Sequence record: NC_020079.1
Origin: Escherichia phage phAPEC8
Length of the DNA stretch: 64,000 nt
Strand: one strand, 5' to 3'
Below the pieces are notes generated by a model. It was not told where the DNA came from. It did not search any database and saw only the letters and a list, made by a program, of their open reading frames with translations. Below, one piece after another: positions 16,457-37,962 of the stretch; the first letter of the stretch is position 1, and every line of letters starts with the position of its first letter. The position numbers were made by a program, and so were the translations under genes.

Positions 16457-16929
16457 TGGCAGATTTAACTACGATCAAAATTTCTGATCTTACACAAACA
16501 ACCTCTGTGTCTGATACAGATTTCTTTGTAACAGATCAGGCTGGAATAACAAAGAAAACTTCTTTGAAAGTGCTGTTGAGTGGTGCAGGGGTAACTAGAA
16601 ACCGTTTAAATGCACGTGGAACAGTAACTAGCACCTTGGCATTAGATATTAGTTCAGCAGAATATTTTTCGGCAACTTTATCTTCTGCAACATGCACAAT
16701 TAGTTTTACTAATATTCCAGTAGCAACAAATGCAGTTTTAAACTTTACTTTAGCTTTGCGTCAAGGAAGTGGTGCAAATAAAGTTGTATGGCCTTCTTCT
16801 GTAAAATGGAGTTTTGGTCGTTCCCCAGTTTTGAGTTATCGTCAAGGTGCAACAGACACTTTTGAGTTTATCAGTTATGATAATGGTGCAACTTGGACAG
16901 GTAGCTTAGTTTTAGCAGGAGTTATTTAA
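16456..16929 (+). CDS. hypothetical baseplate protein
   Basis: 157-aa ORF; start overlaps the preceding stop (ATGG junction). Confidence 0.45.
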   Translation: MADLTTIKISDLTQTTSVSDTDFFVTDQAGITKKTSLKVLLSGAGVTRNRLNARGTVTSTLALDISSAEYFSATLSSATCTISFTNIPVATNAVLNFTLALRQGSGANKVVWPSSVKWSFGRSPVLSYRQGATDTFEFISYDNGATWTGSLVLAGVI

Positions 16930-19805
16930 TGTCAAGAGTTAAGCACAATATTGACAACACGTTTCAGTTGATTGAAGGGTTGGTTCAGTTTTTGGAAAGA
17001 AATACTGGGCTTACCATAGATCCTACGGTTCAGCATTACATTATCAACCCACAAAACGTATTGGCGAACAACAGACACTTTATTAACTGGACAGCGCAGG
17101 AAGGGCAACCAAACGGTGACGCTACTACCGAAGGTCAATCTGTGCTTATCACTGGTTTTGCCTATGCATATTTGGCTACAGGGGATAAAAAATATCTTGA
17201 ATCTGCCGAGAAGTATTGGCAAGCCTATATAGATCACTTCTTCGGGGGCCAACCTATTCCTGATCCTCCGGCTAAATATCGTCCCAACTGGATCATCAAT
17301 GGTAAAGAACCACGTTTAGCACATTACCCTCTCACAGATGATGGGTATCCTACGCACGGTGGGTTCAAAGGTAGCATGATGACTTGGATTAACGGAAGGA
17401 CTGTTATTCCTAAAGGTGCACCGCATTGGGGGGAATACTTAGATAAAGCTTGGTTTGCTTTCAATGGCAATCTTGGTTGGAACTCCGTTAACGCAACAGT
17501 TTATGCAACTAACCCAGATGGTTCAACCAACTGGAAAGAATATGGAGATCAGTGGGACGTTGAATGGATTATAGACCGTCTAGGACGTAAAGTTGATTGG
17601 GATGGTAACATTTTATCTACTGGTCATAGCTTTGCAGAATATGGAACAGTACAACTTAAAAATGCTTCTGTGAACGGGGACTATAAATTCAACTACGCTA
17701 CATGCAATCCTGTAGAACACGGTGGATATCTGCTTAAGCGTAATGAGATGTGGCATAACCGTCCTGTAAACGTTCCGGTAGAGTTAGGCTATCAAGATAA
17801 TGCTTCCGATGCTGAAACGTGGTGGTGTGATGCAAACTACTTGATGTATCAGATCACAGGAGAGAGAAAATACTGGCTTTGCTGGCAATCTTCTTTATTG
17901 TTGTGTCAAGACTACTCAAACATCGATATGTTTGATAAATTCTTCCGTAGATCTACGACAGCAATAATTCCTTTTACAGATGGTATCTCGTATGATTACT
18001 CATACCCATCTACAGCAATACCTAAATATTCTCGTGACGAATTAGGATACACAGTAATTCGCCAAGATGTTTCAGCACAAACAACTCTAGAACAACAGGC
18101 AGTTTGGTTCAGAGTAGATCAGAATTCAAAACTGCGTATTGAGTTTCAAGGTGTAGATGATGCAGGGGAAGGTGTTCTTTTCCGTCCAGAGCTAGAATTA
18201 AGCAAAACTAAGAGTGAAACAGACACAGTGACATATCGTTGTGGCTTACCTCTTGGTGCAGCTAATATGACTAAGATGGATATACCTTTATCTAGTTTTA
18301 TGCGCACCGAACCTCCTGGAGGTGGTGTATATATTATTGCTGAACCTAGAATTATTGTTGACTGGGGAAGCAATACTGTGATACAATATAAATATGCAAC
18401 TGGTATTGCTGGGACAAATAGTGATCAGATAGTTTCTGCTAATATGGATTCAGATGGTGGTTTTACTGTTGGGTTTTGGTTAACACCAACTAAAACAGCC
18501 AATTTAAAATCTATTACGTATCGTTCATACGCAGATGATTTTAACATCACTATTACGGATTCCGCAGGTTGGAGATGGTGGGCCATGTTAGAAAAAACAA
18601 ATTCTGCATGGGTTACTAAAGCTTTAAGTCCTGCTGATTTCAAATTAAGCACTTGGCAACCCAATCATAACGACACAGAGACAAAACCTTCGTCAATAAA
18701 CCTGACTGCTGTTGATCAGATCAACATTGCATTGGATTCTGAACCTGCAAATGGCTTGACAGGGGCAATCGATTTTTATTGTGTTAACGATATCCCATCT
18801 TTGTATTCTTCAGCCGCTGGTGATGATTACACAATGTATTTCAGGGTTACAGTTTCATCTGAAAATCCTTATACAGCAAAACTTGGAGATTGTACAATAC
18901 TGGACTATAAACTTGACAGTTTGAATTATACTCCAGGAATCATTCCATTTTCCAATATTAGTGATCCTAACACAGCATTATATGACGGTTGGCGTGGTAT
19001 TCCTTACCCAGGTTATCAATACCCATCCTTATATTGTTTTAAAGGGAGAGATATTGACTGGGTTCGTATGAACAACAGTATAGACTTTTTATATGATTCA
19101 CAAATGTGGTTTTATAATAAGTTTGCCCCTGTGATGCCTGGGCCAATGGCACAAGCTTATGTTTGGGATCGTTGGGATGCTCATAAATACGGAAACAAGA
19201 ATGAGTTCACAATGTATCATTGGAACGATAAAGCTTGGGATGGTTATGAAGCACGAGCATTCTTCTGTGCGTGTCATACAGTATACGAACTGAAGCAACG
19301 AGGAGCAGAAGTTCCTGAAAAACTTTTAACAGTTTGTAAAAACTGGATCAATTATCTGAAGTGGTTCCAGGATAACAACGAAGGAAGAACACCAACAATA
19401 TTTTATCCCAACGGAGAAGTGGCTGCGCCTGTAGATGACTTTACAAGTCACATGTCTGCGCTCTTTATGGCGGGATGTGCTATAATGGGGATGGCTGGAT
19501 ATGATTCAGAAATTCCTAACATTAAAATAGTAGCAGATCGCTGTTTTGAACTTATTCAGGAAAATTATATTGTTCTTGGTCCTAATCACGTTATGAATGG
19601 TTGTTGGAGTGCTGCTCCTAGACCAGACAGTGATAACGGAGTCTTCTTTGGCTTCCACGCCGGAGAGTTGTTACGTGGTTTTGGGTTGTATGCCTTATAC
19701 AAAAAACTTAATCCCCAAAATGCATTACCTGTTTTGGATTCGAGCAATATTCCTGCACTTACTGTTTTGACAATGGCAAACATTAGTGTGGACGTTACCG
19801 AGTAA
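16929..19805 (+). CDS. large tail-associated protein, possible glycan-degrading receptor-binding protein
   Basis: 958 aa; Trp/Tyr-rich segments (ITGFAYAYLATGDKKYLESAEKYWQAY, WWCDANYLMYQITGERKYW) reminiscent of alpha/alpha-barrel glycoside hydrolases; first of three consecutive large tail genes. Confidence 0.35.
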   Translation: MSRVKHNIDNTFQLIEGLVQFLERNTGLTIDPTVQHYIINPQNVLANNRHFINWTAQEGQPNGDATTEGQSVLITGFAYAYLATGDKKYLESAEKYWQAYIDHFFGGQPIPDPPAKYRPNWIINGKEPRLAHYPLTDDGYPTHGGFKGSMMTWINGRTVIPKGAPHWGEYLDKAWFAFNGNLGWNSVNATVYATNPDGSTNWKEYGDQWDVEWIIDRLGRKVDWDGNILSTGHSFAEYGTVQLKNASVNGDYKFNYATCNPVEHGGYLLKRNEMWHNRPVNVPVELGYQDNASDAETWWCDANYLMYQITGERKYWLCWQSSLLLCQDYSNIDMFDKFFRRSTTAIIPFTDGISYDYSYPSTAIPKYSRDELGYTVIRQDVSAQTTLEQQAVWFRVDQNSKLRIEFQGVDDAGEGVLFRPELELSKTKSETDTVTYRCGLPLGAANMTKMDIPLSSFMRTEPPGGGVYIIAEPRIIVDWGSNTVIQYKYATGIAGTNSDQIVSANMDSDGGFTVGFWLTPTKTANLKSITYRSYADDFNITITDSAGWRWWAMLEKTNSAWVTKALSPADFKLSTWQPNHNDTETKPSSINLTAVDQINIALDSEPANGLTGAIDFYCVNDIPSLYSSAAGDDYTMYFRVTVSSENPYTAKLGDCTILDYKLDSLNYTPGIIPFSNISDPNTALYDGWRGIPYPGYQYPSLYCFKGRDIDWVRMNNSIDFLYDSQMWFYNKFAPVMPGPMAQAYVWDRWDAHKYGNKNEFTMYHWNDKAWDGYEARAFFCACHTVYELKQRGAEVPEKLLTVCKNWINYLKWFQDNNEGRTPTIFYPNGEVAAPVDDFTSHMSALFMAGCAIMGMAGYDSEIPNIKIVADRCFELIQENYIVLGPNHVMNGCWSAAPRPDSDNGVFFGFHAGELLRGFGLYALYKKLNPQNALPVLDSSNIPALTVLTMANISVDVTE

Positions 19806-19813
19806 GGGGTAAA

Positions 19814-21967
19814 ATGAAACAAGCTATATTTACTGTCACGCGAGACAAGAGAGTAAATGCGAGTTCATTTAACTACACGACTGTTGATGGAACAGCAGTC
19901 GCTGGTAGAGATTATATTGCAAAATCGGGAACACTTGTGTTCCCTGATGATGCTGATTCTGCTACCATTGTGGTTGAAGTATTTGAACGACCAAAGAACT
20001 CAATAGATCTTAACTTCTCCCTCCAAGTTTCAGGGATTAGTCAAAATAATATGATGGTTGAAACAACCATCAATTGTATTATAACTACTATCCAAGAAAA
20101 TACTACTCCAATAACTTGGACTACAAAAGACGTTAAAATGTTCTCTCCTATGTATTGGACAATAGATTCTCAAGCAACGGAAAGTTGTTCTATTGTATCT
20201 CATGGAGACTCTTTTACTGCAAGATTTGTAAACAGAACAACAGCAGGTTTGGCAGGGGTTATCTGGAGCACAGTTGACAAATATGACCATAAAGGTGTTG
20301 GGTATTTACCCCACACAGATTTAAGTTCAGAGAAACTTTGGTTTAAAATGGAAATTAGTCAAAACATGCCAGGTTTTAAAGAAGAACCTTTGGTGCCGAC
20401 TTTGACTGTAACTCTCCTGGATAAAAGTGTTCATTATGTCAGTTTAGGATTCTACGCTTCAGATATTTCAGAAGATGGTAAAACAGCTACAATCAAGTTA
20501 GATTTTGGTAATATCTTTTCTGGCCCTAATAATGATATTCCTTTGGATATGAGTGCTGTAGATAATATTTTCTTCTCTTTGATTACAGCAAGGTATGAAG
20601 AAATAGAAGAGGTTGTACCTATTGACAGTCAAGAGGCTTGGTTTACTTTCACTCTTCTTGAACCTACTTCTGGTTACAGTATGATGAAAGTCAGCAACCT
20701 TGTCCAGCCTGAACATGATATTCGCATGTGCACATCTTATGATGATATGTATAACCTGACTCCAGAGAGAGTTATTTATAATACATATGCACTAGGTTAT
20801 CGTGGGATGATTAACCATTATAACGGAATGTCTCACTATTATGAGTTCTCATGGAATGGAACATCTTGGGCTTTAAATAAATCTGTTTTCCTGAATCCGG
20901 CTACAGAAGCTTGGCTTAACAGCTTTCATTCTATAGCAAACGAGAAGGGCTACACAATAATGAACTCTTTAAGTTTTGAATTGATGAGCACAGTTTGTCC
21001 TGTAGAATGGGTCCAGCATGATTGGAACGATGCTCTTGCAGCAACAGGGTATAAACCTCCTAGTTATGTGTTGTCTCCAACTATTGACGAAGGTATGGAA
21101 TATTTGCAAAATGTTATTAATAAAATAGCATCTATTTCTCAAGCTAACAATATTCCAGTCGTCATTCAAATTGGTGAACCTTGGTGGTGGTATAATACAG
21201 CAAGTAAAATGCCTTGCATATATGATTACACTACCAAACTGGCATTCAACACAGAAACAGGTTTATTTGCACAAGATGCAGGAACAATAGATAATTATAA
21301 AACAGGAACGCCGTTTGACGAATACTATGCATTTTTGTCTCGTAAACTAGGATTAAGAGTTACAAAGTTTGCAACAGATCCCAGAGCAACTTACCCAGGA
21401 GCCAAGGTAACATTGCTTCCGTTCTTGCCATCAATTATCGGCAACGGTTTGATGGAGAAAGTTAACTTTCCGTCTGATTACTACATTCCTGAAACTTTTG
21501 ATTTTTACTGTTCAGAGTGTTACGACTGGCTTCTGGAAGGTAAAATGATGAAAGCATTCGATGCAATTACCATACCACATGAAAAATTAGGTTTTGAATA
21601 TTCTGATATTCACTATCTTTCGGGTTTTGTTCCAGATGCTACTCTTGCACCTTTGTATGGCTTCGATCCTGAATCAAACTACCGAACGTATCTTTGGAAA
21701 ATGATTATAGGCAATATAGTATTGAACGCCAACAAGTTTGACGGACTTACACAATATATATGGGCCTATCCTCAAATAATGCACGATTCCATCACGGTAG
21801 TTAATTCTCAATCTCAAGTTTTCTATATGGGTAACGTGCCTTTGAACGTTTATTTACAGGATATCACTCTTAAACAGGTAAATGTTGAGATTGCCACCAT
21901 AAGTGGAATTACATTAGCCACTAAATCTGGAGAAGATTTGGTAACAACACAAAAATTTTATATATAG
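19814..21967 (+). CDS. tail fibre/spike protein with N-terminal Calx-beta-like segment (putative)
   Basis: 717 aa; N-terminus TTVDGTAVAGRDYIAKSGTLVFPDDADSATIVVEVFERP resembles a Calx-beta motif; lies within the receptor-binding gene block. Confidence 0.35.
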   Translation: MKQAIFTVTRDKRVNASSFNYTTVDGTAVAGRDYIAKSGTLVFPDDADSATIVVEVFERPKNSIDLNFSLQVSGISQNNMMVETTINCIITTIQENTTPITWTTKDVKMFSPMYWTIDSQATESCSIVSHGDSFTARFVNRTTAGLAGVIWSTVDKYDHKGVGYLPHTDLSSEKLWFKMEISQNMPGFKEEPLVPTLTVTLLDKSVHYVSLGFYASDISEDGKTATIKLDFGNIFSGPNNDIPLDMSAVDNIFFSLITARYEEIEEVVPIDSQEAWFTFTLLEPTSGYSMMKVSNLVQPEHDIRMCTSYDDMYNLTPERVIYNTYALGYRGMINHYNGMSHYYEFSWNGTSWALNKSVFLNPATEAWLNSFHSIANEKGYTIMNSLSFELMSTVCPVEWVQHDWNDALAATGYKPPSYVLSPTIDEGMEYLQNVINKIASISQANNIPVVIQIGEPWWWYNTASKMPCIYDYTTKLAFNTETGLFAQDAGTIDNYKTGTPFDEYYAFLSRKLGLRVTKFATDPRATYPGAKVTLLPFLPSIIGNGLMEKVNFPSDYYIPETFDFYCSECYDWLLEGKMMKAFDAITIPHEKLGFEYSDIHYLSGFVPDATLAPLYGFDPESNYRTYLWKMIIGNIVLNANKFDGLTQYIWAYPQIMHDSITVVNSQSQVFYMGNVPLNVYLQDITLKQVNVEIATISGITLATKSGEDLVTTQKFYI

Positions 21968-21975
21968 GAGTAAAA

Positions 21976-24741
21976 ATGTCAACTACAATTACTAATTTAC
22001 CCGAAACATCAAAAGTTAATGGTTCTGATTACCTGGTTTTAGATCAACCTGATAAGACTGTTAAAAGCACAGTTTCCAACTTTCTTACTGACACTGGGGT
22101 GGTTTTAGCCACCCAGCTAAAAGATACTTCTGGAGCTACCAAGTATCCAGAACTTCAAATGTCACGTTGGAGAGATGAAGGTGATCCTAGAGGATGGGGA
22201 GCAGTAGGTGACGGAGCAACAGACGATACTAATGCCATAACACAGCTTCTTGCTGCTATGCCTGATGGATGGATTGTTGATGGGCGTAATCTCACTTTCA
22301 AGGTTACAACACTACCAGATATAAGCAAGTTTAAAAACGCTGCTTTTGTTTACGAGCGTATTGTTGGACAACCCCTTACTTACGTATCTGAGGGTTTCTT
22401 TGATGGAAATCTGACAAAAATTACGGATACACCATTTTACAATGCTTGGACGCAAGATAAGACGTTTGTTTATGACAATGTTATATATGCACCATTTATG
22501 GCTGGCGAACGTCATGGTGTACAAAACCTCCATGTAGCGTGGGTTAAATCAGGAGATGATGGACAAACTTGGTCTATGCCAGAATGGTTAACTCCAATTC
22601 ATCCTGATTATAATGCCTCTTCAGCAAACAAAGTTAACTATCATTGTATGAGTATGGGTGTATGTGGTAATCGCTTATATGCGGTGATCGAAACCCGTTA
22701 CTTATCTAACATGCGATTGAAGAAAGCAGAACTTTGGTCACGTCCAATGCCTTATTATAGAAGGCCAACTGGAGGCATAACAATTAGTTCTGGGTCTACT
22801 ACAGCGACAATTGTTTTAGAAAAGCATGGTCTTAAAGTTGGAGATGCTGTTAACTTTTCCAATTCAGGTGCAACTGGCGTATCTGGAAATATGACTGTTG
22901 CATCTGTAATTAACAAGGATACATTTACTGTTACATTAGCGAGTGCTGCCACATCTAATATAGATAATACAGGAACTACTTGGCATTTTGGAACACGTTT
23001 CTGGGATAGCCCTTGGGAAATTACAGAATTACCAGATGTTGCCTATTCTACTAATGCAGATTTATGTGTTACAGAAACCCATAGTTTTACAGTTATAGAT
23101 GATGATAATTACACTTTTGCTGTTGGTTATCACAATGGTGATGTTTCCCCAAGAAGATTAGGTATTTTGTATTTCAATAATGCTTACTCTGACCCAAGTT
23201 CTTTTACTCGTAGAACAATTAGTCAAGAATATGCTGACAATGCAGCAGAACCCTGCATTAAATATTATGATGGAATTTTATATTTAACTACCAGGGGTAC
23301 TTCAACTTCTGCTGCTGGTTCTACATTAGCAATGAGTACCGACCTTGGAGAAAACTGGAACTACTTAAGATTCCCTAACAACGTTCATCATACAAACTTA
23401 CCATTTGCAAAAGTTGGTAACTACCTTTATATCTTTGGTACAGAACGTTCATTCGGAGAATGGGAAGGAGAAGAACTAGATAATAGATATAAAGGCACGT
23501 ATCCTCGAACGTTTATGTGCAAGATTAATGTATCTTCATGGCCTACATCTTTATCCGATGTTCAATGGTTTAATATCACTGATCAGATGTATCAAGGGCA
23601 TATTGTTAATTCTGCATGTGGTGTTGGTTCGGTATGTGTTAAAGATGGTTGGTTATATTATATCTTTGGAGGCGAAGATTTCTTATCTCCTTGGTCTATT
23701 GGGGATAATAGTAAAAAATTATGGTACAAGCATGATGGTCATCCAGCCGATTTATATAGTTATAGACTAAAGATTACCGAACATGATTTTGTATCACGTG
23801 ATTTCAAATATGGAGCTACGCCAAACCGTACATTGCCTGTATCTATGGGTACAGATGGGGTAAGGCATGTCTCAGCCCCTGTAACTTTTGATAATGATGT
23901 ACAAGTATACTCTTTAACAGTTACTGGCCTTGAGCATGATGGGACACAACAATCTGCCGTTAGAATAAAATTAGATGGTGATTATGGGGTTGTTGCAAAA
24001 AATGTCCCAATAAAAAATCCTTCTAAACAGCGACTAATCCTATGTGGAGGAGAAACTCCTTACGTTACTGATGGATCGCTATTACAACTATATGGTTCAA
24101 ACCATACGTATCCAAACAGAGCAGTTTTATATGCCCCAGGAGGAGCATATACCCAAAATAATTTCATGCCGTATTTAGATGGACAAGTTGCATTAGGCGG
24201 TGCGTCTAACAGATGGTCAGAAGTGTACGCATCTACAGGAACCATTAATACTTCAGATGGAACATTAAAAACTAAACCTACAGAGATTGAAGATATTTTA
24301 CTGAAAGCATGGGAAGATATTCATGTAATCTCTTACCAATGGCTTAGTGCTGTCGCGGAGAAAGGAGATTCTGCGCGTATTCATTTTGGTGTTATAGCTC
24401 AAGATGTAAGAGATATTCTGATTAATTATGGCTTAATGGATGAAAATAGCACTGATTGTAAGTATGCTTTTCTGTGTTATGATGAATACCCTGCTATGTA
24501 CGATAGTGTTGTTACGGGACAAAAAGAAATCCCTTTATTTGATGATGAAGGGAATGTTGTAATTGATGAAGAAGGTAATCCAGTAACAATCGTAGAAGAT
24601 GTTGTAGAAACTATCGAAATAATTCCAGCAGGATCGCGATGGGGTATCCGCGCTGACCAAATGTTTTTTATTGAGATGGCTTATCAACGTAAAAAGTTAA
24701 AAGCTCTTGAAGAAAGACTTGCAACCCTGGAAAGTAAATAA
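21976..24741 (+). CDS. endosialidase-like tailspike with C-terminal intramolecular chaperone (peptidase S74-type)
   Basis: 921 aa; WGAVGDGATDDTNAIT motif, Asp-box repeats (SGDDGQTW, STDLGENW), and a C-terminus (HFGVIAQDV...SRWGIRADQMFFIEMAYQRKKLKALEERLATLESK) typical of the self-cleaving chaperone domain of endosialidases and L-shaped fibres. Confidence 0.6.
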   Translation: MSTTITNLPETSKVNGSDYLVLDQPDKTVKSTVSNFLTDTGVVLATQLKDTSGATKYPELQMSRWRDEGDPRGWGAVGDGATDDTNAITQLLAAMPDGWIVDGRNLTFKVTTLPDISKFKNAAFVYERIVGQPLTYVSEGFFDGNLTKITDTPFYNAWTQDKTFVYDNVIYAPFMAGERHGVQNLHVAWVKSGDDGQTWSMPEWLTPIHPDYNASSANKVNYHCMSMGVCGNRLYAVIETRYLSNMRLKKAELWSRPMPYYRRPTGGITISSGSTTATIVLEKHGLKVGDAVNFSNSGATGVSGNMTVASVINKDTFTVTLASAATSNIDNTGTTWHFGTRFWDSPWEITELPDVAYSTNADLCVTETHSFTVIDDDNYTFAVGYHNGDVSPRRLGILYFNNAYSDPSSFTRRTISQEYADNAAEPCIKYYDGILYLTTRGTSTSAAGSTLAMSTDLGENWNYLRFPNNVHHTNLPFAKVGNYLYIFGTERSFGEWEGEELDNRYKGTYPRTFMCKINVSSWPTSLSDVQWFNITDQMYQGHIVNSACGVGSVCVKDGWLYYIFGGEDFLSPWSIGDNSKKLWYKHDGHPADLYSYRLKITEHDFVSRDFKYGATPNRTLPVSMGTDGVRHVSAPVTFDNDVQVYSLTVTGLEHDGTQQSAVRIKLDGDYGVVAKNVPIKNPSKQRLILCGGETPYVTDGSLLQLYGSNHTYPNRAVLYAPGGAYTQNNFMPYLDGQVALGGASNRWSEVYASTGTINTSDGTLKTKPTEIEDILLKAWEDIHVISYQWLSAVAEKGDSARIHFGVIAQDVRDILINYGLMDENSTDCKYAFLCYDEYPAMYDSVVTGQKEIPLFDDEGNVVIDEEGNPVTIVEDVVETIEIIPAGSRWGIRADQMFFIEMAYQRKKLKALEERLATLESK

Positions 24742-24789
24742 TACAGCTTAGGTGGTATTTCAATCTTTATATCCCACTTAGAGGTACTC

Positions 24790-25053
24790 ATGGCTAAAGA
24801 GAAAAATGGTTTTAAAAAATTTATTCGCGGAATGTTCTGCACTTACCCCGGCAACGGGGTAAGCTCTACGAAAGTCTGGAACGCTGTAGGCATGTCTGTT
24901 ATGACAGGCATGTTTATCTTTTTAGGAATAGAAAAAGAAATTCCTGAATGGATGGGCTGGGCTTTTGTTTTCATGATAACCCCTTCTCGCCTCATGAAAA
25001 ATCTTATTGATTTACGTTGGGGCAGATCACAATCTACCAAAGAGGATGACTAA
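24790..25053 (+). CDS. small two-TM membrane protein (holin-like topology)
   Basis: 87 aa; two hydrophobic helices (VWNAVGMSVMTGMFIFLGI, WMGWAFVFMITP) and a charged C-terminus; embedded between tailspike and baseplate genes. Confidence 0.4.
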   Translation: MAKEKNGFKKFIRGMFCTYPGNGVSSTKVWNAVGMSVMTGMFIFLGIEKEIPEWMGWAFVFMITPSRLMKNLIDLRWGRSQSTKEDD

Positions 25054-27181: not shown

Positions 27182-28243
27182 ATGGCGAAGCCAATATATT
27201 ATCCTGACTGGGCTACACAAACTGTAACGCTCCCAGGAACTTTAAACACAAACAAAATTAGACCTAAAGAAACCATCCGCACAATTGGTATGGATTATGG
27301 TCAAATCATGACTTGCGAAGAGATGAACTGGATTCTTAATAATATCGGTTTATGGATTCGCTATTTGGTGGATGATTTTCTTCCAACTTTACCTAATACC
27401 TACTTGCCTTTAGTGGGAACTAAGATTACAATGGCAGGTGATGCTACTGGTGAGGCCACTTGGAACGGTAACAAAGAAGTTACTTTATCTATCCAAGTTC
27501 AAGATAACAGTCATAATCACTTGTCAGCAAACATTACAGATGCTACTAGTTCAACAGTAACACCAAACGTGTTGGTAAAACGTGATGCGGGTGGTGCTAT
27601 TTATGGTGGCGATGTTTATGTTAACGGTACTTCCACAACAGATCCTGCAACACTGTTCTTCAAAAACTTTGCAGGACAAACAAATGGTGAGATTTCTGCC
27701 GAGTATCAAAGCGGAGGTCAGCTTTACATCTATCGTAGAAATCCTAGCACAGGTAGTGTATCGGCAGGTGTTCGTTTATATGATGCAGGTTATGTTCTAA
27801 TAGATAATCCAAGATCGAACAGTGGACAAGATACTTCTAACGGAAATGCTTTAGTTCGTTTAGATTATCTGAACTCTCGTTTGACTTCCCTTCAGAACAC
27901 ATTGCAGACGAATATTAACACTGTTCAAAACAACTTGAATAATGTTAACAACAACCTCTCTTCTCGTATAAACAATGTAGAAAGTAATCATCAAAGTCAG
28001 ATTACAAATAACTACAACTATGCTAACGGAACCTTTGTAAGAGATATTCGTTATACTAGCCAAGGTGTGTATTATCCACCAGGGAACGAGGTTTCTTGGA
28101 CTTATATCTGTTCTTCTGGTTATGTTCTTTCTGGTATTATCGTACAGGAAACAGGACGTAGCTCTGCGGATAACATCGGTGGGGTTTACTTCAAACGCCT
28201 CCAGCGCAACGTTAACGGAAACTGGTACGATATTGGAGGCTAA
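27182..28243 (+). CDS. tail fibre protein (short)
   Basis: 353 aa; Asn/Ser/Thr-rich central region with heptad-like NNLNNVNNNLSSRINNVESN stretch; immediately followed by a tail-fibre-assembly gene. Confidence 0.5.
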   Translation: MAKPIYYPDWATQTVTLPGTLNTNKIRPKETIRTIGMDYGQIMTCEEMNWILNNIGLWIRYLVDDFLPTLPNTYLPLVGTKITMAGDATGEATWNGNKEVTLSIQVQDNSHNHLSANITDATSSTVTPNVLVKRDAGGAIYGGDVYVNGTSTTDPATLFFKNFAGQTNGEISAEYQSGGQLYIYRRNPSTGSVSAGVRLYDAGYVLIDNPRSNSGQDTSNGNALVRLDYLNSRLTSLQNTLQTNINTVQNNLNNVNNNLSSRINNVESNHQSQITNNYNYANGTFVRDIRYTSQGVYYPPGNEVSWTYICSSGYVLSGIIVQETGRSSADNIGGVYFKRLQRNVNGNWYDIGG

Positions 28244-28789
28244 ATGATATTTACAAACTTTAAAAAATATATTCCTGAAGACCCTGAACTAAAAGAATTG
28301 GTAGAAGCAGAGAACATTCTTTTTCTTCGTTGCGATCAAGGTTACGACTGGTATGATTTACGTAGCACAGAATTCAATAACGATAAAATGAAAGTCGTTT
28401 TTGATGATCAAAATCGTATTGTGTTTTGGAATACTGATCCTACACTACTTTGCCCTGAAGATCTTTCTATAGCACAAGTAGATTTTAATATAGATACTTT
28501 TGAGGATATTAGGAACAAGGTTCTGGATTTAGAAACCTTAACTCTTAAGGATAAAGAGTATTCCCGTGAAGAGTTGATGACACAAGCTAGTGCAAAAATT
28601 CGCTCTTTACAAGAAACAGCGGTAGCACTTATAACACCTTTACAGTATGCTAAAGATTTAGAAATGGCTACTGAAGACGAATTAGCTTATCTTAAAAATC
28701 TTCAAGTTTATGTAGTTAAACTAAATCGTGTTCCGCTTCAAAAAGACTATCCTTACGCTATAGATTGGCCTACATTACCGACAGAATAA
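28244..28789 (+). CDS. tail fibre assembly protein (Tfa/gpG-like)
   Basis: 181 aa; C-terminus AYLKNLQVYVVKLNRVPLQKDYPYAIDWPTLPTE matches the conserved Tfa ending (W..YR..LNRVD...P.I.WP..P). Confidence 0.6.
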   Translation: MIFTNFKKYIPEDPELKELVEAENILFLRCDQGYDWYDLRSTEFNNDKMKVVFDDQNRIVFWNTDPTLLCPEDLSIAQVDFNIDTFEDIRNKVLDLETLTLKDKEYSREELMTQASAKIRSLQETAVALITPLQYAKDLEMATEDELAYLKNLQVYVVKLNRVPLQKDYPYAIDWPTLPTE

Positions 28790-29137: not shown

Positions 29138-32100
29138 ATGGCAACATTCCCAACATATCCAGCAACGTCTCTCGAACAGGGCGTAGACCTGGTTATTTTC
29201 TCATCTAACCAACTCCATGATGTTATTAATGGAAGTGCTACAGAGAGTATTGAAACAGAATCAGGGTTGATACCAACCCTGAGAAAAGCCCTTGTTGACA
29301 ACTTTTTCTTTAAAAGTCCATTAGATTGGGCGCAAGGCACAAACGAAACAGTTTTTAACCAACTTCGTTATTTCCAGAACGGGGTGTTGAGTGGTTATTA
29401 CTATGCGCCTAACGCTACACTGGTAAACCCAATTCCTATGCAAGGGACTCCAGTAGGAGATAACAACTGGGTATTGTGGGGACTGAAGACAGAACAACTA
29501 GCAACAGAAGTCACCCCTTGGGTATATTCTGGTGCAACTGGTTATGAAACAGTAATCAGTCCTCCCTACATCTTTGATAGTGCTATTGTTACGATCAATG
29601 GTGTTATTCAGGTTCTGGGAGAAGCTTTCCGCATAGAAGATAGTAAAATCATCTTATCTGAACCTTTGGGACACGATCCTGCAACAGGACTGCCAAACAA
29701 ACTTTTTGCCTATATTGGTAAAATCGTAGCTTCCGCAGATACAGATCCTAACTTAGAAAACCGTCTTGTCAGTTTAGAAACAAAAACTGAAGAACTGACA
29801 GAAAGCATGGATAAAGTACCTTTACAAACTATTGCTCGTAAATACGGTTTGTTGGATGATGAAGTAGCTTACGCAACAGCGGGTCAATCGTTAACAGGGA
29901 TTAAAGCTCTGTATGATCCAGTAGCACAATCTTCCTACACATTGCCTCCTAACATCACAGGGACTTTAACATCCTTGTCTGTTTCTGGAGTAATGACTTA
30001 TTCTGGCGGATCTGTAGATCTTTCTGCATTGGCTGTTGAACGTGGACAGTTTGTTCATTTGCCTACAAGCTTTGGTAATAACGTAACTCTGACAGCTAAA
30101 AATCAGACGATTGGACGTGGTGCTGGTCGTTATCGTTGGGCTGGGAGTTTACCAAAAAGTATTTTGGCCTCAGATACATTGGAGACAAGCGGTGGATTAG
30201 GTCCAAATGCATGGGTTCTGACCAATACAGAAGGACTGTTAACCCCTCGTGGTGGAACATACAACGATTTATTCGATGTTGTCTACTTATCAGAATTTGC
30301 TAACAACACAACAACATATACCACACCAGAAGCAGCTTTCCAAGCGGCACTGTTAGCAGCAAAAGCTTCGAAAAGCAAGATTCTCGATGCTTACGGTTGC
30401 GATATGACTTTCACGACAAGCTCTTTTGATATTCAAGGTATCACTTTGCGTGGGGGTGTGTTCCGTGGTCAACGCGACTATCGTGTGCAAAATGCTACAG
30501 TAGAAGGCACAACTTTCCGTAACTCTCGTGTTATGTATTGGGGTGGTGCTGTGCGCATGTTCGATTGTTTGTGGGACGGTGCTCCTCGCGCAGGTCAAGT
30601 TGGTAGCTTGGTATTCCAAGGCAACCCAATATCAGGTACTTTTGAAATTGATAACTGTACTTTTAAAAACGGGTTGTATGGCATCCTTCAACAAGGAACA
30701 GGGGAACCAGTAACACGTGGTGTCTTCCGTAACCTTACCTTCATGGACATGCAAGGTGATGCAATAGAACTGAACGTCATCAATAAACATTATGACGATG
30801 GTTGTGTGATTGAGAATATTTACCTGTCTAATATCGATGGGACTAACGCTCCTATTCCTCTGTCCAACTGGGGTATCGGTATCGGTGTAGCTGGTAAAGG
30901 ACCATATGGTTACGGAATCCCTGATGATCAATATTGCAAGAATATTACAATTCGTAACGTTTTTGCAAAACGTTGTCGTCAGATTGTCCACGTAGAAGTT
31001 GGTCGTAATATCTCTATCGAAAACATTCATGGCGATCCAGACCAGACCGTATCTGTTGGGACAGGTTTGGCAACTGGCGCAGTTGTAATGTATGGAAGTA
31101 AAGATTTTACGATTGACGGTGTTTACGGAGAGCCTAAAACAGACGGTAGCACACTTGCAAGTAATATCCGTATGATTTATTTGGAGTGGGGAACTAACGC
31201 AGTTCTGGACGAAGAGGGTAATCCGGTAGTTCCGGCACAGGGTAGACCTTCAAACCCATGCTTTAACTATTCTGTTCGTAATATTCACACCAAAACTGGG
31301 CGTGTTTTTGCAGGAGTTTCCGCTGGGCCAGGTTATGAAAACAGAGTTAGCTTTGAAAATATTCGTTGCGCTGCATTGCAGTTATTCGGTATAGCTTCTT
31401 GGCTTTCAATGTCTAACATCACCTGTAATATCTTCGATTGTGTTGGTCAACCTGAATCTGGTCCAGGGACATTTTATGATGGATTCTTCCGTAGAGAAAA
31501 ATCTGTTCTTGAAATGGTTAACGTGAACTGTTACCCAGATGGCAAGACGATGGTTACTGGTCGTCCACAGTGGAGCCGTTGCCGTTACTCGGATATTCAT
31601 CGTGTCAATTGTAATGTTGAAGCTAATATGTATACCAATATCGCAGGTGGTATTGGAGCTATTGTAGGGACAACGGGCAAAGTTTATTACTTAGAGCCTA
31701 ATCCTAGTCGAAACATTGATGGAATGCATTTCCCAACAGGGAAAGAGTTTGACAAAGGTGATATGATAGTCAAGGCGGATAATACGTTCTTCCTTGTAAC
31801 AACAAGTGGGGCATATATTCCAGATATCCCAGCTTTCGGTATTCGAGCTACACAGGCAGGAGATACCTTCCTGACACAGAACTTGACTCCTAACGGGACA
31901 GCAACAAATGCTTCTTGGTTGTATCATTACCCTCTGTCAGCAGGGACACGTATCCGTATTCCTGGCGCTGGTGTAGGTGGAGCAGATTTGGACACAGTTA
32001 TTACTCGTGCACCTTATCAAGATAATGATACGTGGACTAACCCAGTTAAAATAGACATTGCAGATCCAATTGTAACGCCTACAAGTGCTGGAGTTAGAAT

Positions 32101-32191
32101 TAAAACCATACCTAATGATTCCAGTAATGTTTCTGTAGGTAATACTGCGGTTATTCGCCCAACGCCAGTAGTAGATGTGCCAACAACCTAA
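29138..32191 (+). CDS. tailspike protein with right-handed beta-helix (pectate-lyase-like) domain
   Basis: 1017 aa; repeated beta-helix rungs (NCTFKNGLYGILQQG..., NLTFMDMQGDAIELNV..., NITIRNVFAKRC..., NISIENIHGD...) typical of polysaccharide depolymerase tailspikes. Confidence 0.6.
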   Translation: MATFPTYPATSLEQGVDLVIFSSNQLHDVINGSATESIETESGLIPTLRKALVDNFFFKSPLDWAQGTNETVFNQLRYFQNGVLSGYYYAPNATLVNPIPMQGTPVGDNNWVLWGLKTEQLATEVTPWVYSGATGYETVISPPYIFDSAIVTINGVIQVLGEAFRIEDSKIILSEPLGHDPATGLPNKLFAYIGKIVASADTDPNLENRLVSLETKTEELTESMDKVPLQTIARKYGLLDDEVAYATAGQSLTGIKALYDPVAQSSYTLPPNITGTLTSLSVSGVMTYSGGSVDLSALAVERGQFVHLPTSFGNNVTLTAKNQTIGRGAGRYRWAGSLPKSILASDTLETSGGLGPNAWVLTNTEGLLTPRGGTYNDLFDVVYLSEFANNTTTYTTPEAAFQAALLAAKASKSKILDAYGCDMTFTTSSFDIQGITLRGGVFRGQRDYRVQNATVEGTTFRNSRVMYWGGAVRMFDCLWDGAPRAGQVGSLVFQGNPISGTFEIDNCTFKNGLYGILQQGTGEPVTRGVFRNLTFMDMQGDAIELNVINKHYDDGCVIENIYLSNIDGTNAPIPLSNWGIGIGVAGKGPYGYGIPDDQYCKNITIRNVFAKRCRQIVHVEVGRNISIENIHGDPDQTVSVGTGLATGAVVMYGSKDFTIDGVYGEPKTDGSTLASNIRMIYLEWGTNAVLDEEGNPVVPAQGRPSNPCFNYSVRNIHTKTGRVFAGVSAGPGYENRVSFENIRCAALQLFGIASWLSMSNITCNIFDCVGQPESGPGTFYDGFFRREKSVLEMVNVNCYPDGKTMVTGRPQWSRCRYSDIHRVNCNVEANMYTNIAGGIGAIVGTTGKVYYLEPNPSRNIDGMHFPTGKEFDKGDMIVKADNTFFLVTTSGAYIPDIPAFGIRATQAGDTFLTQNLTPNGTATNASWLYHYPLSAGTRIRIPGAGVGGADLDTVITRAPYQDNDTWTNPVKIDIADPIVTPTSAGVRIKTIPNDSSNVSVGNTAVIRPTPVVDVPTT

Positions 32192-32253: not shown

Positions 32254-34278
32254 ATGAATTTAACAAGACCTAATAGTGCGATAGCCGATCTGGTAGAAGC
32301 TACTTATCGAAAACGTCGCAGCTTTGAGGCAGGTTTTACATTACGTAATTCCCGTGAAGTTTTGCTGTTAGCAGCAGAAGGGAATTATTACCAATGGAAA
32401 GGAACTTTTCCTAAAGTTGTTCCAGCAAACTCTACGCCAGCCACCACAGGTGGTATTTCTTCCCTTGCATGGCAAAGTGTTGGGACCGCTGATGATATAG
32501 CAATTATCAATGCCAAGTTTACGGCAATGCAGCAACAGATTGATGATCTGTCGGAAACAATACCTGAAGCTGGTAAATCGGCTTATCAGATCGCACTTGA
32601 TAATGGTTTTGTTGGAACAGAAGCACAATGGCTTGCTTCTTTGAAAGGGGATACTGGTGCTCAACTTAATATTAAAGGATCATTAGCAAGCACTAGTGAA
32701 CTACCATCCACAGGTAACGTTGCAGGGGATGGTTATATCGTAGGTGATGTAATCTACGCTTGGGATGGTTCTGTTTGGAAACTTATTTCTTCTCTTGGGC
32801 CAGAAGGTAAATCAGCTTACGAGGTATGGTTGGCAGATGGTAATACAGGATCTGTTTATGATTTTCTTACCTCTATAAAAGGTGATAAAGGTGATGTTGG
32901 TCCTACAGGGCCACAGGGAGCACCTGGTGTTAACGCCAACGGTTTTGATTATCGTGGGGATTTGCCTTCTACAAGTAACTTACCACAACCTAACTCTGAA
33001 AACGTAAGCCAAGCTTATTCTATCAATGGTAATCTTTATGTCTCTAATGGGACAGCTTGGGTCAACATGGGTAATATTGTTGGTCCTCAAGGTCCACAAG
33101 GTGAGGCAGGTAAAGACGGTCTTGATGGAACAGATGGAGATGAAGGGAAATCTGCATATCAAAGTTGGCTGGATGCTGGTAATGAAGGGACAGAAGTAGA
33201 TTTTATTGCCTCACTTAAAGGTCCAAAAGGAGACAAGGGTGATCAAGGAGAGCGAGGTCCACAAGGTGAACTAGGTCCACAAGGACCAGTGGGTGCAACA
33301 GGATCAGGCTTAGAGATTATCGGGGTTCTGAACAGTGAAGCTGAACTTCCTCCTACTGGAGAAGTAGGTGATGCATATAAAATTAATAATGATTTGTATG
33401 TTTGGATTCAAGATGCTACGGAATGGATGAATGTTGGCAGTCTTGGAGGAACATCAATTACAGCTAAAGGTCATGTTCCGAACAGTGAAGCTCTCCCTGT
33501 TTATAATAACTATGGCGATGCCTACTTAACTGAAGACACCAGTAATCTTTACATCTATACCTACGATCAAGACACCAATTCCGCATCTTTTGTTGACATG
33601 GGAAGTATTAAAGGCGACAAAGGTGAAAAAGGGGATAAAGGGGATAAGGGTGATCCTGGAACAAATGGAACCAACGGTACTGATGGGACCAACGGTAAGG
33701 ACGGCGCACAGTGGTTTGTAGCAACAACTAATCCAGTCGCAGGAGACGGTGTTATCAATGATTACGCCTTCAATACTACCACTGGAGCAGTGTTTAAGAA
33801 AACAGATTCTTCTACGTGGACACTTATAGGAACTCTTCCTAGTATACCAGAAGCCCCTCAAGACGGCTTGACGTATGGTCGTTCTGATGGAAACTGGATC
33901 GAAATATCAGGATCAGATCCTACAGAAGCTATAACACCAACTAGAGTTACAGCAGGTTTCATGGAACTTGAAACAACTACTGCCAACTCTGGAGCATCTT
34001 GGACTCCTTCTGGAACTTCCAATATGTATGTTGTTACAGTAACTGATGCTCTGACAGTTGGAGCATGGCCTGGTGTCACTGGCTCTACAAAACCTAAAGC
34101 GTTTTCAGCAATGATTTATTTGATTCAAGATACAACGGGACACACGGTTACACTAGATGCGTCTTATGGAGCACTAAATGATACAGAAATAGCAACTACT
34201 GCTAACGCAGTAACAATTTTGCAATTAACGTATCCTGGTGTGGGTGATATCGTGGACATGGTTGTTGTAACACGATAA
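32254..34278 (+). CDS. collagen-like tail fibre protein with phage-fibre repeats
   Basis: 674 aa; three copies of K-SAY-x-(A/W)L-x-GFVGTE/GNTGS...(A/T)SLKG motif and several Gly-X-Y runs (GDKGEKGDKGDKGDPGTNGTNGTDGTNGKDG). Confidence 0.65.
   Translation: MNLTRPNSAIADLVEATYRKRRSFEAGFTLRNSREVLLLAAEGNYYQWKGTFPKVVPANSTPATTGGISSLAWQSVGTADDIAIINAKFTAMQQQIDDLSETIPEAGKSAYQIALDNGFVGTEAQWLASLKGDTGAQLNIKGSLASTSELPSTGNVAGDGYIVGDVIYAWDGSVWKLISSLGPEGKSAYEVWLADGNTGSVYDFLTSIKGDKGDVGPTGPQGAPGVNANGFDYRGDLPSTSNLPQPNSENVSQAYSINGNLYVSNGTAWVNMGNIVGPQGPQGEAGKDGLDGTDGDEGKSAYQSWLDAGNEGTEVDFIASLKGPKGDKGDQGERGPQGELGPQGPVGATGSGLEIIGVLNSEAELPPTGEVGDAYKINNDLYVWIQDATEWMNVGSLGGTSITAKGHVPNSEALPVYNNYGDAYLTEDTSNLYIYTYDQDTNSASFVDMGSIKGDKGEKGDKGDKGDPGTNGTNGTDGTNGKDGAQWFVATTNPVAGDGVINDYAFNTTTGAVFKKTDSSTWTLIGTLPSIPEAPQDGLTYGRSDGNWIEISGSDPTEAITPTRVTAGFMELETTTANSGASWTPSGTSNMYVVTVTDALTVGAWPGVTGSTKPKAFSAMIYLIQDTTGHTVTLDASYGALNDTEIATTANAVTILQLTYPGVGDIVDMVVVTR
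33613..33706 (+). repeat. collagen-like Gly-X-Y coding repeat tract
   Basis: Triplet-periodic GGN-NNN-NNN repeats encoding GDKGEKGDKGDKGDPGTNGTNGTDGTNGKDG within the fibre gene. Confidence 0.6.
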
Positions 34279-34319: not shown

Positions 34320-36995
34320 ATGTTTCCAATTCCAATATTTACTATTATGACCAGCACTGGTGTCGTTCCTCTGCCAGCAGGTATTGTTAAAAAAGTAATC
34401 ACTTTAGATTACCCAGATAATGCTGGTAATTCTAACAGCAGTTTAGCAATTTTGCTTAATGATGGTAGATTGTTTACTCAAGGCGCAAACCTTTTTGGTG
34501 AGATTGCAGATGGAACTCGTAGTGCACGATTCAATAATTTCCACTTAGCTTCTACTGTAGTAGCGGATGTGTTTACCGCAGATCGTTGTTTTGTTATTAA
34601 AACTAACAGTGGGGGATGGCAATATTCAGGATTGACAGCAGGATTGGTAGGATCTATAGCAGCAGGTGGTACGGACGCATGTGTAACTACTTGGACCAGC
34701 TTTCCATCTGTAATAACAGGGACTATCTCTTTAGCCAATCTTAAAGAGGTTAAGGGAGGATATAACAACACTCTCTGGTTAATGAATAGTGGTGTTCTTT
34801 ACGGATCTGGTCAAAACACAGTAGGCAGTTTAGGTGCAAGTACTACTAACGAAGTTTCTACTCCTCGTCAGATAACAAGTGCAGCAGTTGCTTTTGATGC
34901 AGGTTACAACCAATGCTCTTATGTCAACAATGTGGGAACCTTGCGTGTTTGTGGAGCTAGTAAAGGTTTAGCAGGTAATAATAACACAACAACAGCTTTT
35001 GTCAATGCCAAGATATCCGCTACTGAAACAGTGTATGTCAAAGATTACATCAATACAGTTTCCCAGACAATAGTTGTAGGAGATACCTCCGGTGGCACGG
35101 GTGCAGTAAACTACTTATATGTTAGATCTAATACAGAAACAACCTACACTAAACTGGATACCTTTGCAGCAGGTTTCTCAACATGGAAATTTCCACCAAG
35201 CCGCCACTCTTTTTTCGTTGGGATCAATAATTCCTTGTGGGCTATTGGTAAGAACTACACTGCAAACTTAGGTTTGGGGTATGATTCTGCGAGCGGAGAT
35301 CCACTTCAAGTGGGAAAACCAGTTAAACCTGAAGGAGTGGGTTCCTGGGATATAAACAAGCTCACAAGCGTTCATACGCTGAATATGGATGTTACTAACC
35401 AATTAGGTTATCAAGGAACCTTTTTCGTTTATAATGGAGATATGTATTATTCCGGTATTTGGAAAGATGGAAAAGCCTCGTATCTGTTCAATAGTGGTCT
35501 AAACTATAATAAATTCACACCAATAGCAAGCTCCGTGATTACGGGTGATATTCTGGCAACTGGCTTAACTACGGATTCTTTAGGAATTTGTATTGTAGGT
35601 GGAACTAAACAGTTGACACATTCTGTTAGCCCAGAAGGAGGTAAACTTTTCAATATTAAATATACTTCTTCTGCCCCTGCAAACATGACAATATCGTCTA
35701 CTGGTTTAATGACTTTCCATGCAGAAGGTGGTTTTGATGCAGGTATGACAGCCTTAAACGCTGAAGGAACAACTTTATCAGATACCTCTGGAGGATATGC
35801 TTCAACATTGAGTGTTTACACCCCTAGCTTATCTGCGATGGATGTAGGAACAACACAAACAATGGTAGCAGAAATAACGCCAACAGGAGCAGCAAGCTTA
35901 CCTGGCATGGTTGTTGAGTATTTCTCTAATGACCCTACGGTAGCAACAGTTGACCCCGTTACAGGCGTTATTACAGCGGTTGCTGATGGAGGTTGTCGTA
36001 TCGGTTGTAGAGCAACTTATCAAGGTGTGGTAACTGCCGAAGATAGTTCTTATCTCACAGTGAATGCTGTGGTGATTGTGATGGATTATGATTTGACGCA
36101 AGAAACTATTCCGGCGGATGTAAAGGTCAACAGGAGTAACCGTTATGCCAGGGCTTCTGGAGATATCCTTGTACCTACAGAGAGTTCTGCTCCCGTAGCA
36201 CCTTTAGAATATGTTGGTACAACTCCACAAGGTAGACGTGTTGTAGCAGCCAACCGTACACATATCTTTATCAACAATAACTTGACAACAGCTTCCCCGT
36301 GGTTGAAGACGAACTTGACAGTCACAGCATCAACAATCAACTCTCCGGTTGGAACTACGGCTAACACTTACAAGTTAACACCTTCTACAACTTCAGGACA
36401 ACATATTTTATCAGCAGTGAATACAGCTTCTGATATTACAGCAGGTAAGCACTGGGCGGCATCCGTATTCTTGAAGCCAGATGGGATCACTAAAGTGAAA
36501 CTCAAATTGACTTCAGGAGATGAGATTAACGAAGGGACTTATGATCTTGTAGCTGGAACATTTACAGGTGCAGATGCAAACATAATCGATATGGGGAATG
36601 GTTGGTATCGTGTAATTCTACACAAAGTGACAGTTGCCAAACAAGCATCTATAACCTATGAGATTATAGCTTTGAATGCAAGTGGATCAGACACTTTCGC
36701 AGGAGATGGTACGGCAGGTCTTATTGCTTGGGTTCCACAGCTTGAGATGGGGGATATGACAAATCCAGTTTGGGCGGGGACACCATTTGTTTGTTCTTAT
36801 GCACGAGACACTACCAGTGCTGTTACCTTCACTATTCCTAAGAATGGACATACTGGCGTGGACATTTACCACACTGATGGTACTGTGCAACGAGAGGTCT
36901 TCACTGGTACAGCTACAACTTGGATGTTGACGTTCACCGCCGCAAGTGCGGATTGGGGATCGAAGTTCATTACAGGTTTGAAATATTACGACTAA
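34320..36995 (+). CDS. tail fibre/adhesin protein with Ig-like (Big_2-type) domain
   Basis: 891 aa; segment VVEYFSNDPTVATVDPVTGVITAVADGGCRIGCRATYQGVVTAEDSSYLTVNAVV resembles a bacterial Ig-like group 2 domain; last gene of the plus-strand arm. Confidence 0.5.
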   Translation: MFPIPIFTIMTSTGVVPLPAGIVKKVITLDYPDNAGNSNSSLAILLNDGRLFTQGANLFGEIADGTRSARFNNFHLASTVVADVFTADRCFVIKTNSGGWQYSGLTAGLVGSIAAGGTDACVTTWTSFPSVITGTISLANLKEVKGGYNNTLWLMNSGVLYGSGQNTVGSLGASTTNEVSTPRQITSAAVAFDAGYNQCSYVNNVGTLRVCGASKGLAGNNNTTTAFVNAKISATETVYVKDYINTVSQTIVVGDTSGGTGAVNYLYVRSNTETTYTKLDTFAAGFSTWKFPPSRHSFFVGINNSLWAIGKNYTANLGLGYDSASGDPLQVGKPVKPEGVGSWDINKLTSVHTLNMDVTNQLGYQGTFFVYNGDMYYSGIWKDGKASYLFNSGLNYNKFTPIASSVITGDILATGLTTDSLGICIVGGTKQLTHSVSPEGGKLFNIKYTSSAPANMTISSTGLMTFHAEGGFDAGMTALNAEGTTLSDTSGGYASTLSVYTPSLSAMDVGTTQTMVAEITPTGAASLPGMVVEYFSNDPTVATVDPVTGVITAVADGGCRIGCRATYQGVVTAEDSSYLTVNAVVIVMDYDLTQETIPADVKVNRSNRYARASGDILVPTESSAPVAPLEYVGTTPQGRRVVAANRTHIFINNNLTTASPWLKTNLTVTASTINSPVGTTANTYKLTPSTTSGQHILSAVNTASDITAGKHWAASVFLKPDGITKVKLKLTSGDEINEGTYDLVAGTFTGADANIIDMGNGWYRVILHKVTVAKQASITYEIIALNASGSDTFAGDGTAGLIAWVPQLEMGDMTNPVWAGTPFVCSYARDTTSAVTFTIPKNGHTGVDIYHTDGTVQREVFTGTATTWMLTFTAASADWGSKFITGLKYYD

Positions 36996-36996
36996 T

Positions 36997-37031
36997 AAAA
37001 AAGGGAACCCGCAAAGGTTCCCTTTTCTTTT
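36997..37031. terminator. bidirectional intrinsic terminator at the convergence of plus and minus transcription arms
   Basis: A6 (36997-37002), stem GGGAACC/GGTTCCC (37003-37022), then TTTTCTTTT; flanked by U/A tracts on both sides so it can serve either strand. Confidence 0.65.
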
Positions 37032-37058
37032 ATAAAAACTCTTTATAAATCAATAAGA

Positions 37059-37946
37059 TTAGAATGGGATATCATCGTCGAAGTCCATTGGAGGTTCTTC
37101 TTGATTGCTTGGAGTTGGTTCTGGTTGTGGTTCAGGTTTCTTCTCTTCTTTCTTCTCTTCTTTCTTAGGTTGTTCTGCGGAACCACGAATGGCAGCAGCA
37201 ACTTTATCAGACAGAGCCAGAACTTTACGAGCAGAGTCAATCAGATCTTCTACAGATACAGTCTTAATGGTATGGTCTTTACAAGCATTGAGAATAGCGT
37301 GACCAACAGATGCCCCAAGATCATAATCATTAATATCAACGCCACGAGATTCAGCAATTTCAGATTTCAGCGTGACAGTTGCAGATTGAACAACCCCAGC
37401 GATATCGAAAGCATCGCCTTTAACACCATTACGAATCAGTTCCAGTGCACCATTTACTGCGTGACCAGTTTCCAGACCTACAGTATCACGTTTTTTATAG
37501 GACTGCTTAGGAGCAGCATCGTTGGAACCTTTATTGCCAGAAGATTTGTTAGACTTCTGAACACCATCGGTAGACAATACTGTAATACGAGATTTTTTAG
37601 TATTGTAGTAAGTCTTACCGCCTTTATTATCAACGCGATCAATATCAATACTTACTTCTACACCTTTTTCAATAGTGATCCAATTATCACCTTCTTTGAC
37701 TTGCAGGTTTTCATAACCTTCTTTCAGTTCAATGTCACCAAGAGAAATCCAAACACCTTTCTCATCTGGTTTAGCACCTTTCTCTTTCAGAACAAGAGAA
37801 GCTCGGTGAGTTGAAACAATCGTTTTCCCTTCCCAATGAAAAGTTTTAGGTTCAGCGAATTTATCCAGTTTAACGTAGTCTACGATACCAGTTGCATAAG
37901 TTACGGTTTTGCCTTTACGATCAGTTTCAGTATTAATTACGGACAT
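37059..37946 (-). CDS. ssb: single-stranded DNA-binding protein with E. coli SSB-type C-terminal tip
   Basis: 295 aa; C-terminus ...SNQEEPPMDFDDDIPF matches the acidic protein-interaction tip of E. coli SSB (PMDFDDDIPF, from memory); disordered Lys/Glu/Pro-rich linker precedes it. Confidence 0.6.
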   Translation of the reverse strand: MSVINTETDRKGKTVTYATGIVDYVKLDKFAEPKTFHWEGKTIVSTHRASLVLKEKGAKPDEKGVWISLGDIELKEGYENLQVKEGDNWITIEKGVEVSIDIDRVDNKGGKTYYNTKKSRITVLSTDGVQKSNKSSGNKGSNDAAPKQSYKKRDTVGLETGHAVNGALELIRNGVKGDAFDIAGVVQSATVTLKSEIAESRGVDINDYDLGASVGHAILNACKDHTIKTVSVEDLIDSARKVLALSDKVAAAIRGSAEQPKKEEKKEEKKPEPQPEPTPSNQEEPPMDFDDDIPF

Positions 37947-37962
37947 TATTATCTCCTCTACA

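Follow-up and report, generated by a model that had tools for sequence, protein, structure and literature searches.

A near-identical allele of the phi92 endosialidase tailspike in Escherichia phage phAPEC8, one receptor-binding protein among several and probably exchanged as a cassette

The endosialidase gene and its domain architecture

The subject of this analysis is a tailspike gene of Escherichia phage phAPEC8 (sequence record NC_020079.1), studied within a 64,000-nucleotide (nt) stretch of the phage genome, hereafter the window, whose first letter is position 1 of all coordinates. The gene occupies 21976..24741 on the plus strand as a single intact open reading frame (ORF) of 921 amino acids (aa) in the ORF list, and a preliminary description of the same DNA had called its product an endosialidase-like tailspike. 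That reading is borne out: all five Pfam endosialidase domains were matched in the 921-aa protein in a profile search, the catalytic part matches Protein Data Bank (PDB) entry 4HIZ, and the protein is 97.2% identical overall to gp143 of phage phi92. Every defining feature of the phage endosialidase family (GH58) and of the S74 chaperone that can be tested in sequence is found in the window protein. The gene and its parts are as follows.

21966..21970, plus strand: ribosome-binding site AGGAG, 5 nt ahead of the ATG and overlapping the upstream gene's stop codon (read from the sequence)
21976..24741, plus strand: endosialidase (endo-N-acetylneuraminidase) tailspike precursor, 921 aa, orthologue of phi92 gp143 and ESCO5_00098
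21976..22137, plus strand: N-terminal adaptor (aa 1-54), common to unrelated tailspike alleles at the locus, with a putative role in virion attachment
22201..22401, plus strand: End_N_terminal domain, PF12218 (aa 76-142; E 3.5e-33), holding a GDGxTDDT 'pectate-lyase-like' motif
22402..23775, plus strand: End_beta_propel, PF12217, catalytic six-bladed beta-propeller (aa 143-600; E 3.6e-213), carrying H180, R393, E425, R440 and R491
22549..22572, plus strand: Asp-box 1, SGDDGQTW (aa 192-199), by motif match
22750..22998, plus strand: End_beta_barrel, PF12195, inserted within the propeller (aa 259-341; E 4.1e-38) and nested in the PF12217 match
23335..23358, plus strand: Asp-box 2, STDLGENW (aa 454-461), which fits SxDxGxxW and not the strict SxDxGxTW (N replaces T)
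23782..24252, plus strand: End_tail_spike, PF12219, stalk/triple-beta-helix (aa 603-759; E 5.1e-63), with T759 as the predicted mature C-terminus
24253..24738, plus strand: intramolecular chaperone C-terminal domain (CTD; aa 760-921), with Peptidase_S74, PF13884, at aa 760-819 (E 1.5e-12) and predicted self-cleavage at S760 with K765 as base

The spike gene lies within a long co-directional late tail operon and has a coupled ribosome-binding site; the phi92 record annotates an identical AGGAG motif ahead of its gene 143. Around the gene we found 14 promoter-like (sigma-70) sites against 13.4 expected in shuffled sequence, and 3 terminator-like sites against a shuffled expectation of 2.3, with no enrichment of either. 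A dedicated promoter or terminator for the spike gene is rejected on these numbers, which equal the shuffled expectation.

The catalytic match is close to complete, spanning 366 of the 367 positions of the PF12217 profile. In endoNF, the endosialidase of phage K1F, the inserted beta-barrel domain is a polysialic-acid binding module. The end of the stalk is set by the 4HIZ alignment, which stops at query residue 759, and the mature-peptide boundary of phi92 agrees with it. At the other end, a pectate-lyase-type N-terminal motif had been reported. The short string is present as GAVGDGATDDTNAITQLLAA (aa 74-93; GAVGDGATDDT...), but the label is wrong, as the region is PF12218 and the match to PF12708 scores 14 bits, short of the cutoff of 27 (E 0.043). 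We therefore reject membership of the pectate-lyase superfamily (PF12708), the sub-threshold match being a short GDGxTDDT motif and not a domain.

Asp-boxes, active site and self-cleavage

Both of the Asp-box repeats previously noted in the protein are present, the second deviating from SxDxGxTW at one position, and the chance expectation for such boxes is 0.009 per composition-shuffled protein. By alignment, the active-site residues H180, R393, E425, R440 and R491 are identical to K1F H350, R549, E581, R596 and R647, and Q160, D161, H369, S370, K429 and N545 are identical to K1F Q330, D331, H527, S528, K585 and N699. These K1F positions are the ones named as catalytically or structurally critical in a recent deep mutational scan of endoNF (PMC12632334), and every one of them is conserved in the window protein.

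The Ser/Lys dyad S760/K765 aligns with endoNF S911/K916, and S760 is equivalent in position to the point at which the curated record of phi92 gp143 separates mature endoN92* from the released endoN92-CTD. In addition, aa 663-921 match the structure of the endoNF C-terminal domain, 3GW6 (E 1.6e-70, PDB sequence search). Together with the PF13884 match, these results agree on the self-cleaving C-terminal chaperone domain proposed earlier, the release itself being predicted; both trimerisation and autoproteolytic CTD release would be expected by analogy with the biochemistry of endoN92 and endoNF.

Identity to characterised endosialidases

A PDB sequence search aligned aa 75-759 with the phi92 endosialidase 4HIZ at 1573 bits, with scattered substitutions and one 3-residue gap. 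This part of the protein is near-identical (~97%) to a sequence of solved structure, without large gaps, which supports a sialidase fold and answers the refuting condition named in the preliminary description, the lack of such a fold; the endoNF structures 1V0E and 3GVJ/K/L were the next PDB matches (E ~1e-237). Global alignment gave 99.1% identity to the endo-N-acetylneuraminidase of phage ESCO5 and 53% to K1F endoNF, and a MirsaeidiM_Esher1 protein recorded as 'tail fiber' differs from the window protein at 5 of 921 residues. The phi92 record annotates gp143 as active on poly-alpha-2,8 and poly-(alpha-2,8-alpha-2,9) sialic acid, and activity of the phi92-type endosialidase on polysialic acid has been described (PMC10269720).

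As judged by these comparisons, the spike protein and the phi92 endosialidase, an enzyme already crystallised and studied biochemically, are near-identical alleles, a conclusion that the alignments fully support. The tailspike finding is also already known: a crystal structure and a characterisation exist for its phi92 orthologue, this allele is annotated and discussed for phages ESCO5 and REC, and the ESCO5 work states that phAPEC8 has the gene as well.

A swappable cassette behind a conserved adaptor

DNA identity to phi92 changes sharply around the gene. In a sliding profile, the endosialidase gene is 96.3% identical to phi92 DNA, against 70-80% in every flanking tail gene, and mismatch positions place the rise at ~21915-21940 and the fall at ~24745-24828. 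The corresponding feature is:

21915..24828 (approximate), no strand: cassette ~96% identical to phi92 DNA, with flanks at 70-80% (sliding identity profile)

Distribution and content of the slot vary in the same place. Within Phapecoctavirus, a coverage of at least 80% is reached for the gene by only 12 records (about ten phages) and for the 24-kb tail region by 61. DNA homology to phage Ro121c4 ends at 22136 and returns at 24816, and the Ro121c4 slot holds a 762-aa spike with a Tail_spike_N domain, in which no S74 chaperone domain was matched. This spike shares 53 of its first 54 residues with the window protein and then diverges completely; in most Phapecoctavirus relatives the 54-aa adaptor is likewise followed by a spike of unrelated sequence. 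Because of the step from 96% to 70-80% identity and the unrelated spikes behind a common adaptor, the endosialidase gene is, by its sequence comparisons, a swappable receptor-binding cassette behind a conserved 54-aa adaptor.

The identity profile further indicates that the spike cassette passed recently between Phapecoctavirus and Justusliebigvirus. Within its own genus, gp143 is unique to phi92 (PMC7552041; PMC10269720), and acquisition of the gene by phi92 from a Phapecoctavirus-like donor, which is the direction of transfer that we infer, would fit.

Neighbouring adsorption genes and genome setting

The window belongs to a Phapecoctavirus (Stephanstirmvirinae), a phage of roughly 150 kb whose adsorption apparatus is multivalent. 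Around the endosialidase gene the window holds at least five more genes for fibres or spikes, and baseplate wedge genes lie downstream of it. The neighbouring features are:

16929..19805, plus strand: gp141-like large tail protein, 958 aa, a further part of the multivalent adsorption apparatus, syntenic with phi92 gp141
19814..21967, plus strand: gp142-like protein, 717 aa, with Calx-beta, NCTSP_N and TIM-barrel domains (PF23845, E 3.1e-78), syntenic with phi92 gp142
27182..28789, plus strand: short tail fibre (353 aa) and tail-fibre assembly protein (181 aa), recorded in ESCO5 as 'gpH domain protein' and 'tail fiber assembly protein'
29138..32191, plus strand: homologue of a colanic-acid-degrading tailspike, 1017 aa, with Tail_spike_N PF18668, following the ESCO5/Ro121c4 annotation (phi92 gp150 is a colanidase)
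32254..34278, plus strand: tail fibre or spike with Tail_spike_N and collagen repeat, 674 aa, gp151-like, from domain matches and the ESCO5 and phi92 records
34320..36995, plus strand: RCC1-like beta-propeller and Big_2 protein, 891 aa, at the end of the tail module

No Pfam family was matched in the 958-aa gp141-like protein; phi92 gp141 is listed as a glycosidase receptor-binding protein (PMC5380687). The gp142-like protein has an N-terminal Calx-beta domain joined to the N-terminal domain of a 'non-contractile tail sheath protein' and a TIM-barrel domain (PF23844/PF23845), and it is probably a second receptor-binding protein of glycosidase type. Phage phi92 itself has five or more receptor-binding proteins in its adsorption apparatus (PMC5380687).

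Over the 24-kb tail region, identity to ECO340P2, ASO2A, PNJ1809-36, MirsaeidiM_Esher1 and ESCO5 is 97.7-98.4%; over the replication half of the window, identity to ASO2A is 99.0%. Among the records that match this group are 'Acinetobacter phage vB_AbaM_ABPW7' (98.7% over 24 kb) and several 'Campylobacter' phages, whose host labels look doubtful. A switch of coding strand and of GC-skew sign at ~37000-38000, with plus-strand genes up to 36995 and minus-strand genes from 37059, marks the boundary between the late structural and replication modules. The E. coli-type single-stranded DNA-binding protein (SSB) tip mentioned in the preliminary description is confirmed as the acidic DFDDDIPF terminus of a 295-aa ORF (37059..37946, minus strand). 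A 197-aa ORF close by (38401..38994, minus strand) ends in EEDDIPW, an acidic tip of similar kind that might mimic the SSB tip a second time or serve a partner protein as docking motif.

Capsule penetration and host range

Our reading, to which we assign a probability of roughly 0.93, is that the product of 21976..24741 is a phi92-type endosialidase tailspike, one of several receptor-binding proteins in a multivalent phage, encoded on a mobile cassette. What this says about the host is narrower than had been supposed. The phage was described as probably targeting a K1/K92-type capsule: a capacity to penetrate such capsules is indeed predicted, and the capsule type of the host is not thereby identified. 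That host prediction overreaches because several further receptor-binding proteins surround the gene and because relatives of the phage are not restricted to K1. The earlier host inference is therefore only partly supported: the gene predicts a capacity to penetrate K1/K92 capsules and extends the host range, and does not define the host.

The strongest competing explanation is that the phage is K1/K92-specific and capsule-dependent in the manner of K1F or K1E, so that its natural host must carry a polysialic-acid capsule. The enzyme is intact, phi92 was isolated on E. coli K92, and K1 hosts are listed for most of the other phages in the collection that bear an endosialidase. Several close relatives were also isolated on avian-pathogenic E. 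coli (APEC) or O2 strains, which are often K1. Against this, ESCO5, with a 99.1% identical protein, is not K1-dependent: according to its genome paper it grows on strains of O78 and O88 that are K1-negative and does not use the K1 capsule as a receptor (PMC5374246). Phage phi92 infects the non-capsulated E. coli strains K-12, B and EV5 as well as Salmonella (PMC5380687; PMC7552041). The same gene is carried at 98.2% DNA identity by nepoznato, isolated on K-12 MG1655, and at 99.1% by ECO340P2, isolated on Shigella flexneri, and the window itself holds at least five further fibre or spike genes. We consider strict capsule dependence improbable on this evidence. Placement of the phage in the K1-dependent single-spike class (K1F/K1E type) is rejected on the same grounds, namely the multiple spikes and fibres, ESCO5 and phi92, and the K-12 and Shigella isolates.

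Substrate preference

Several points count against the favoured reading. That the spike hydrolyses alpha-2,8 (and alpha-2,9) polysialic acid is predicted from 97% identity to the characterised endoN92, and the attachment role of the adaptor (aa 1-54) is proposed solely from its conservation across alleles. The protein shows 29 differences from endoN92, comprising 26 substitutions and a 3-residue NAS insertion (aa 213-215). The position aligned to endoNF Q853, a stalk-site residue, is L702 in the window protein.

The NAS insertion (nt 22612-22620) falls in a propeller loop after Asp-box 1 and is present in the ESCO5 allele too. Conceivably, the insertion and the 26 substitutions might together alter the preferred linkage or the processivity, for instance towards better alpha-2,9 cleavage, and the exchange junctions could define rules of cassette recombination in the Stephanstirmvirinae; both are speculative, and we give them slender odds. 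Slimmer still is the chance that the spike has drifted from the substrate preference of endoN92 towards stronger alpha-2,9 activity, O-acetylated polysialic acid or some other nonulosonic-acid polymer. The same substitutions and 3-aa loop insertion relative to phi92 gp143 would favour such drift, as would the finding that loops of the K1F beta-barrel and residues of its stalk tune host discrimination (PMC12632334). However, all mapped catalytic and substrate-channel residues are identical, and identity to endoN92 across the propeller and barrel is 97.6%. The same allele also occurs in about ten sequenced phages, and ESCO5 and REC have been discussed as degraders of the K1/K92 capsule (PMC10269720). 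That the spike is catalytically dead and binding-only or a decaying remnant has nothing specific in its favour and is hardly credible given an intact, full-length frame, conservation of every checked catalytic residue and of the cleavage dyad, and a protein that is 99% conserved among relatives.

Proposed mechanism and significance

If the phi92-type endosialidase reading is right, maturation and infection may proceed as follows. By analogy with endoN92 and endoNF, the C-terminal chaperone would guide trimerisation of three chains and would then excise itself through a cut after T759 mediated by Ser760 and Lys765. The adaptor (aa 1-54) would mount the mature trimer on the myovirus baseplate, where the spike is predicted to bind and internally cleave alpha-2,8 polysialic acid (K1) and the alternating alpha-2,8/alpha-2,9 polymer (K92). 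Depolymerisation of the capsule could in this way tunnel the virion through to a receptor on the cell wall.

The gene marks the phage as a predicted stripper of K1/K92 polysialic-acid capsules, a property of interest for phage therapy of neonatal-meningitis, urinary-tract and avian-pathogenic E. coli; the enzyme also serves as a polysialic-acid reagent. Were the shift in linkage preference true, natural allelic variation would open a way towards an alpha-2,9-specific endosialidase, which glyco-engineering has been seeking. Our analysis also provides a useful correction: in a multivalent myovirus, one depolymerase gene cannot serve as an identifier of the host.

Comparison with known systems

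The closest characterised counterpart is phi92 gp143 (FR775895 gene 143, PDB 4HIZ), which shares with the phAPEC8 spike its domain order, length class (921 versus 918 aa), cleavage site, 97.2% of its amino acids and 96.3% of its DNA. The two genes also share an AGGAG ribosome-binding site and a slot between gp142-like and gp144-like genes, and the layout of tail genes in the window mirrors the multivalent adsorption apparatus of phi92. The phages nonetheless differ in genus (Justusliebigvirus for phi92, Phapecoctavirus here), and their flanking genes are only 70-80% identical. Within Phapecoctavirus, ESCO5, REC, nepoznato, ASO2A, ECO340P2, PNJ1809-36 and MirsaeidiM_Esher1 carry the same gene at the same locus with 98.2-99.2% DNA identity. 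These alleles differ by a few point substitutions, and several of the records annotate the product merely as 'tail fiber' or 'tail spike'.

The next-closest catalytic domains belong to siphovirus endosialidases of the 63D/K1H type (Kagunavirus), which are ~79% identical over aa 75-759 but sit on another virion type behind another adaptor. Other catalytic domains are more distant, with identities of 60% for CUS-3, 53% for K1F and ~51% for K1E/K1-5. K1F endoNF (PDB 1V0E, 3GVJ-L; CTD 3GW6) shares the catalytic architecture, catalytic residues, Asp-boxes and Ser-Lys dyad of the phAPEC8 spike, with a propeller 60% identical, whereas it is longer (1064 aa), has a T7 gp17-like adaptor (aa 1-54 are 21% identical) and has a stalk of 38% identity. 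K1F itself is a K1-dependent podovirus with a single spike type.

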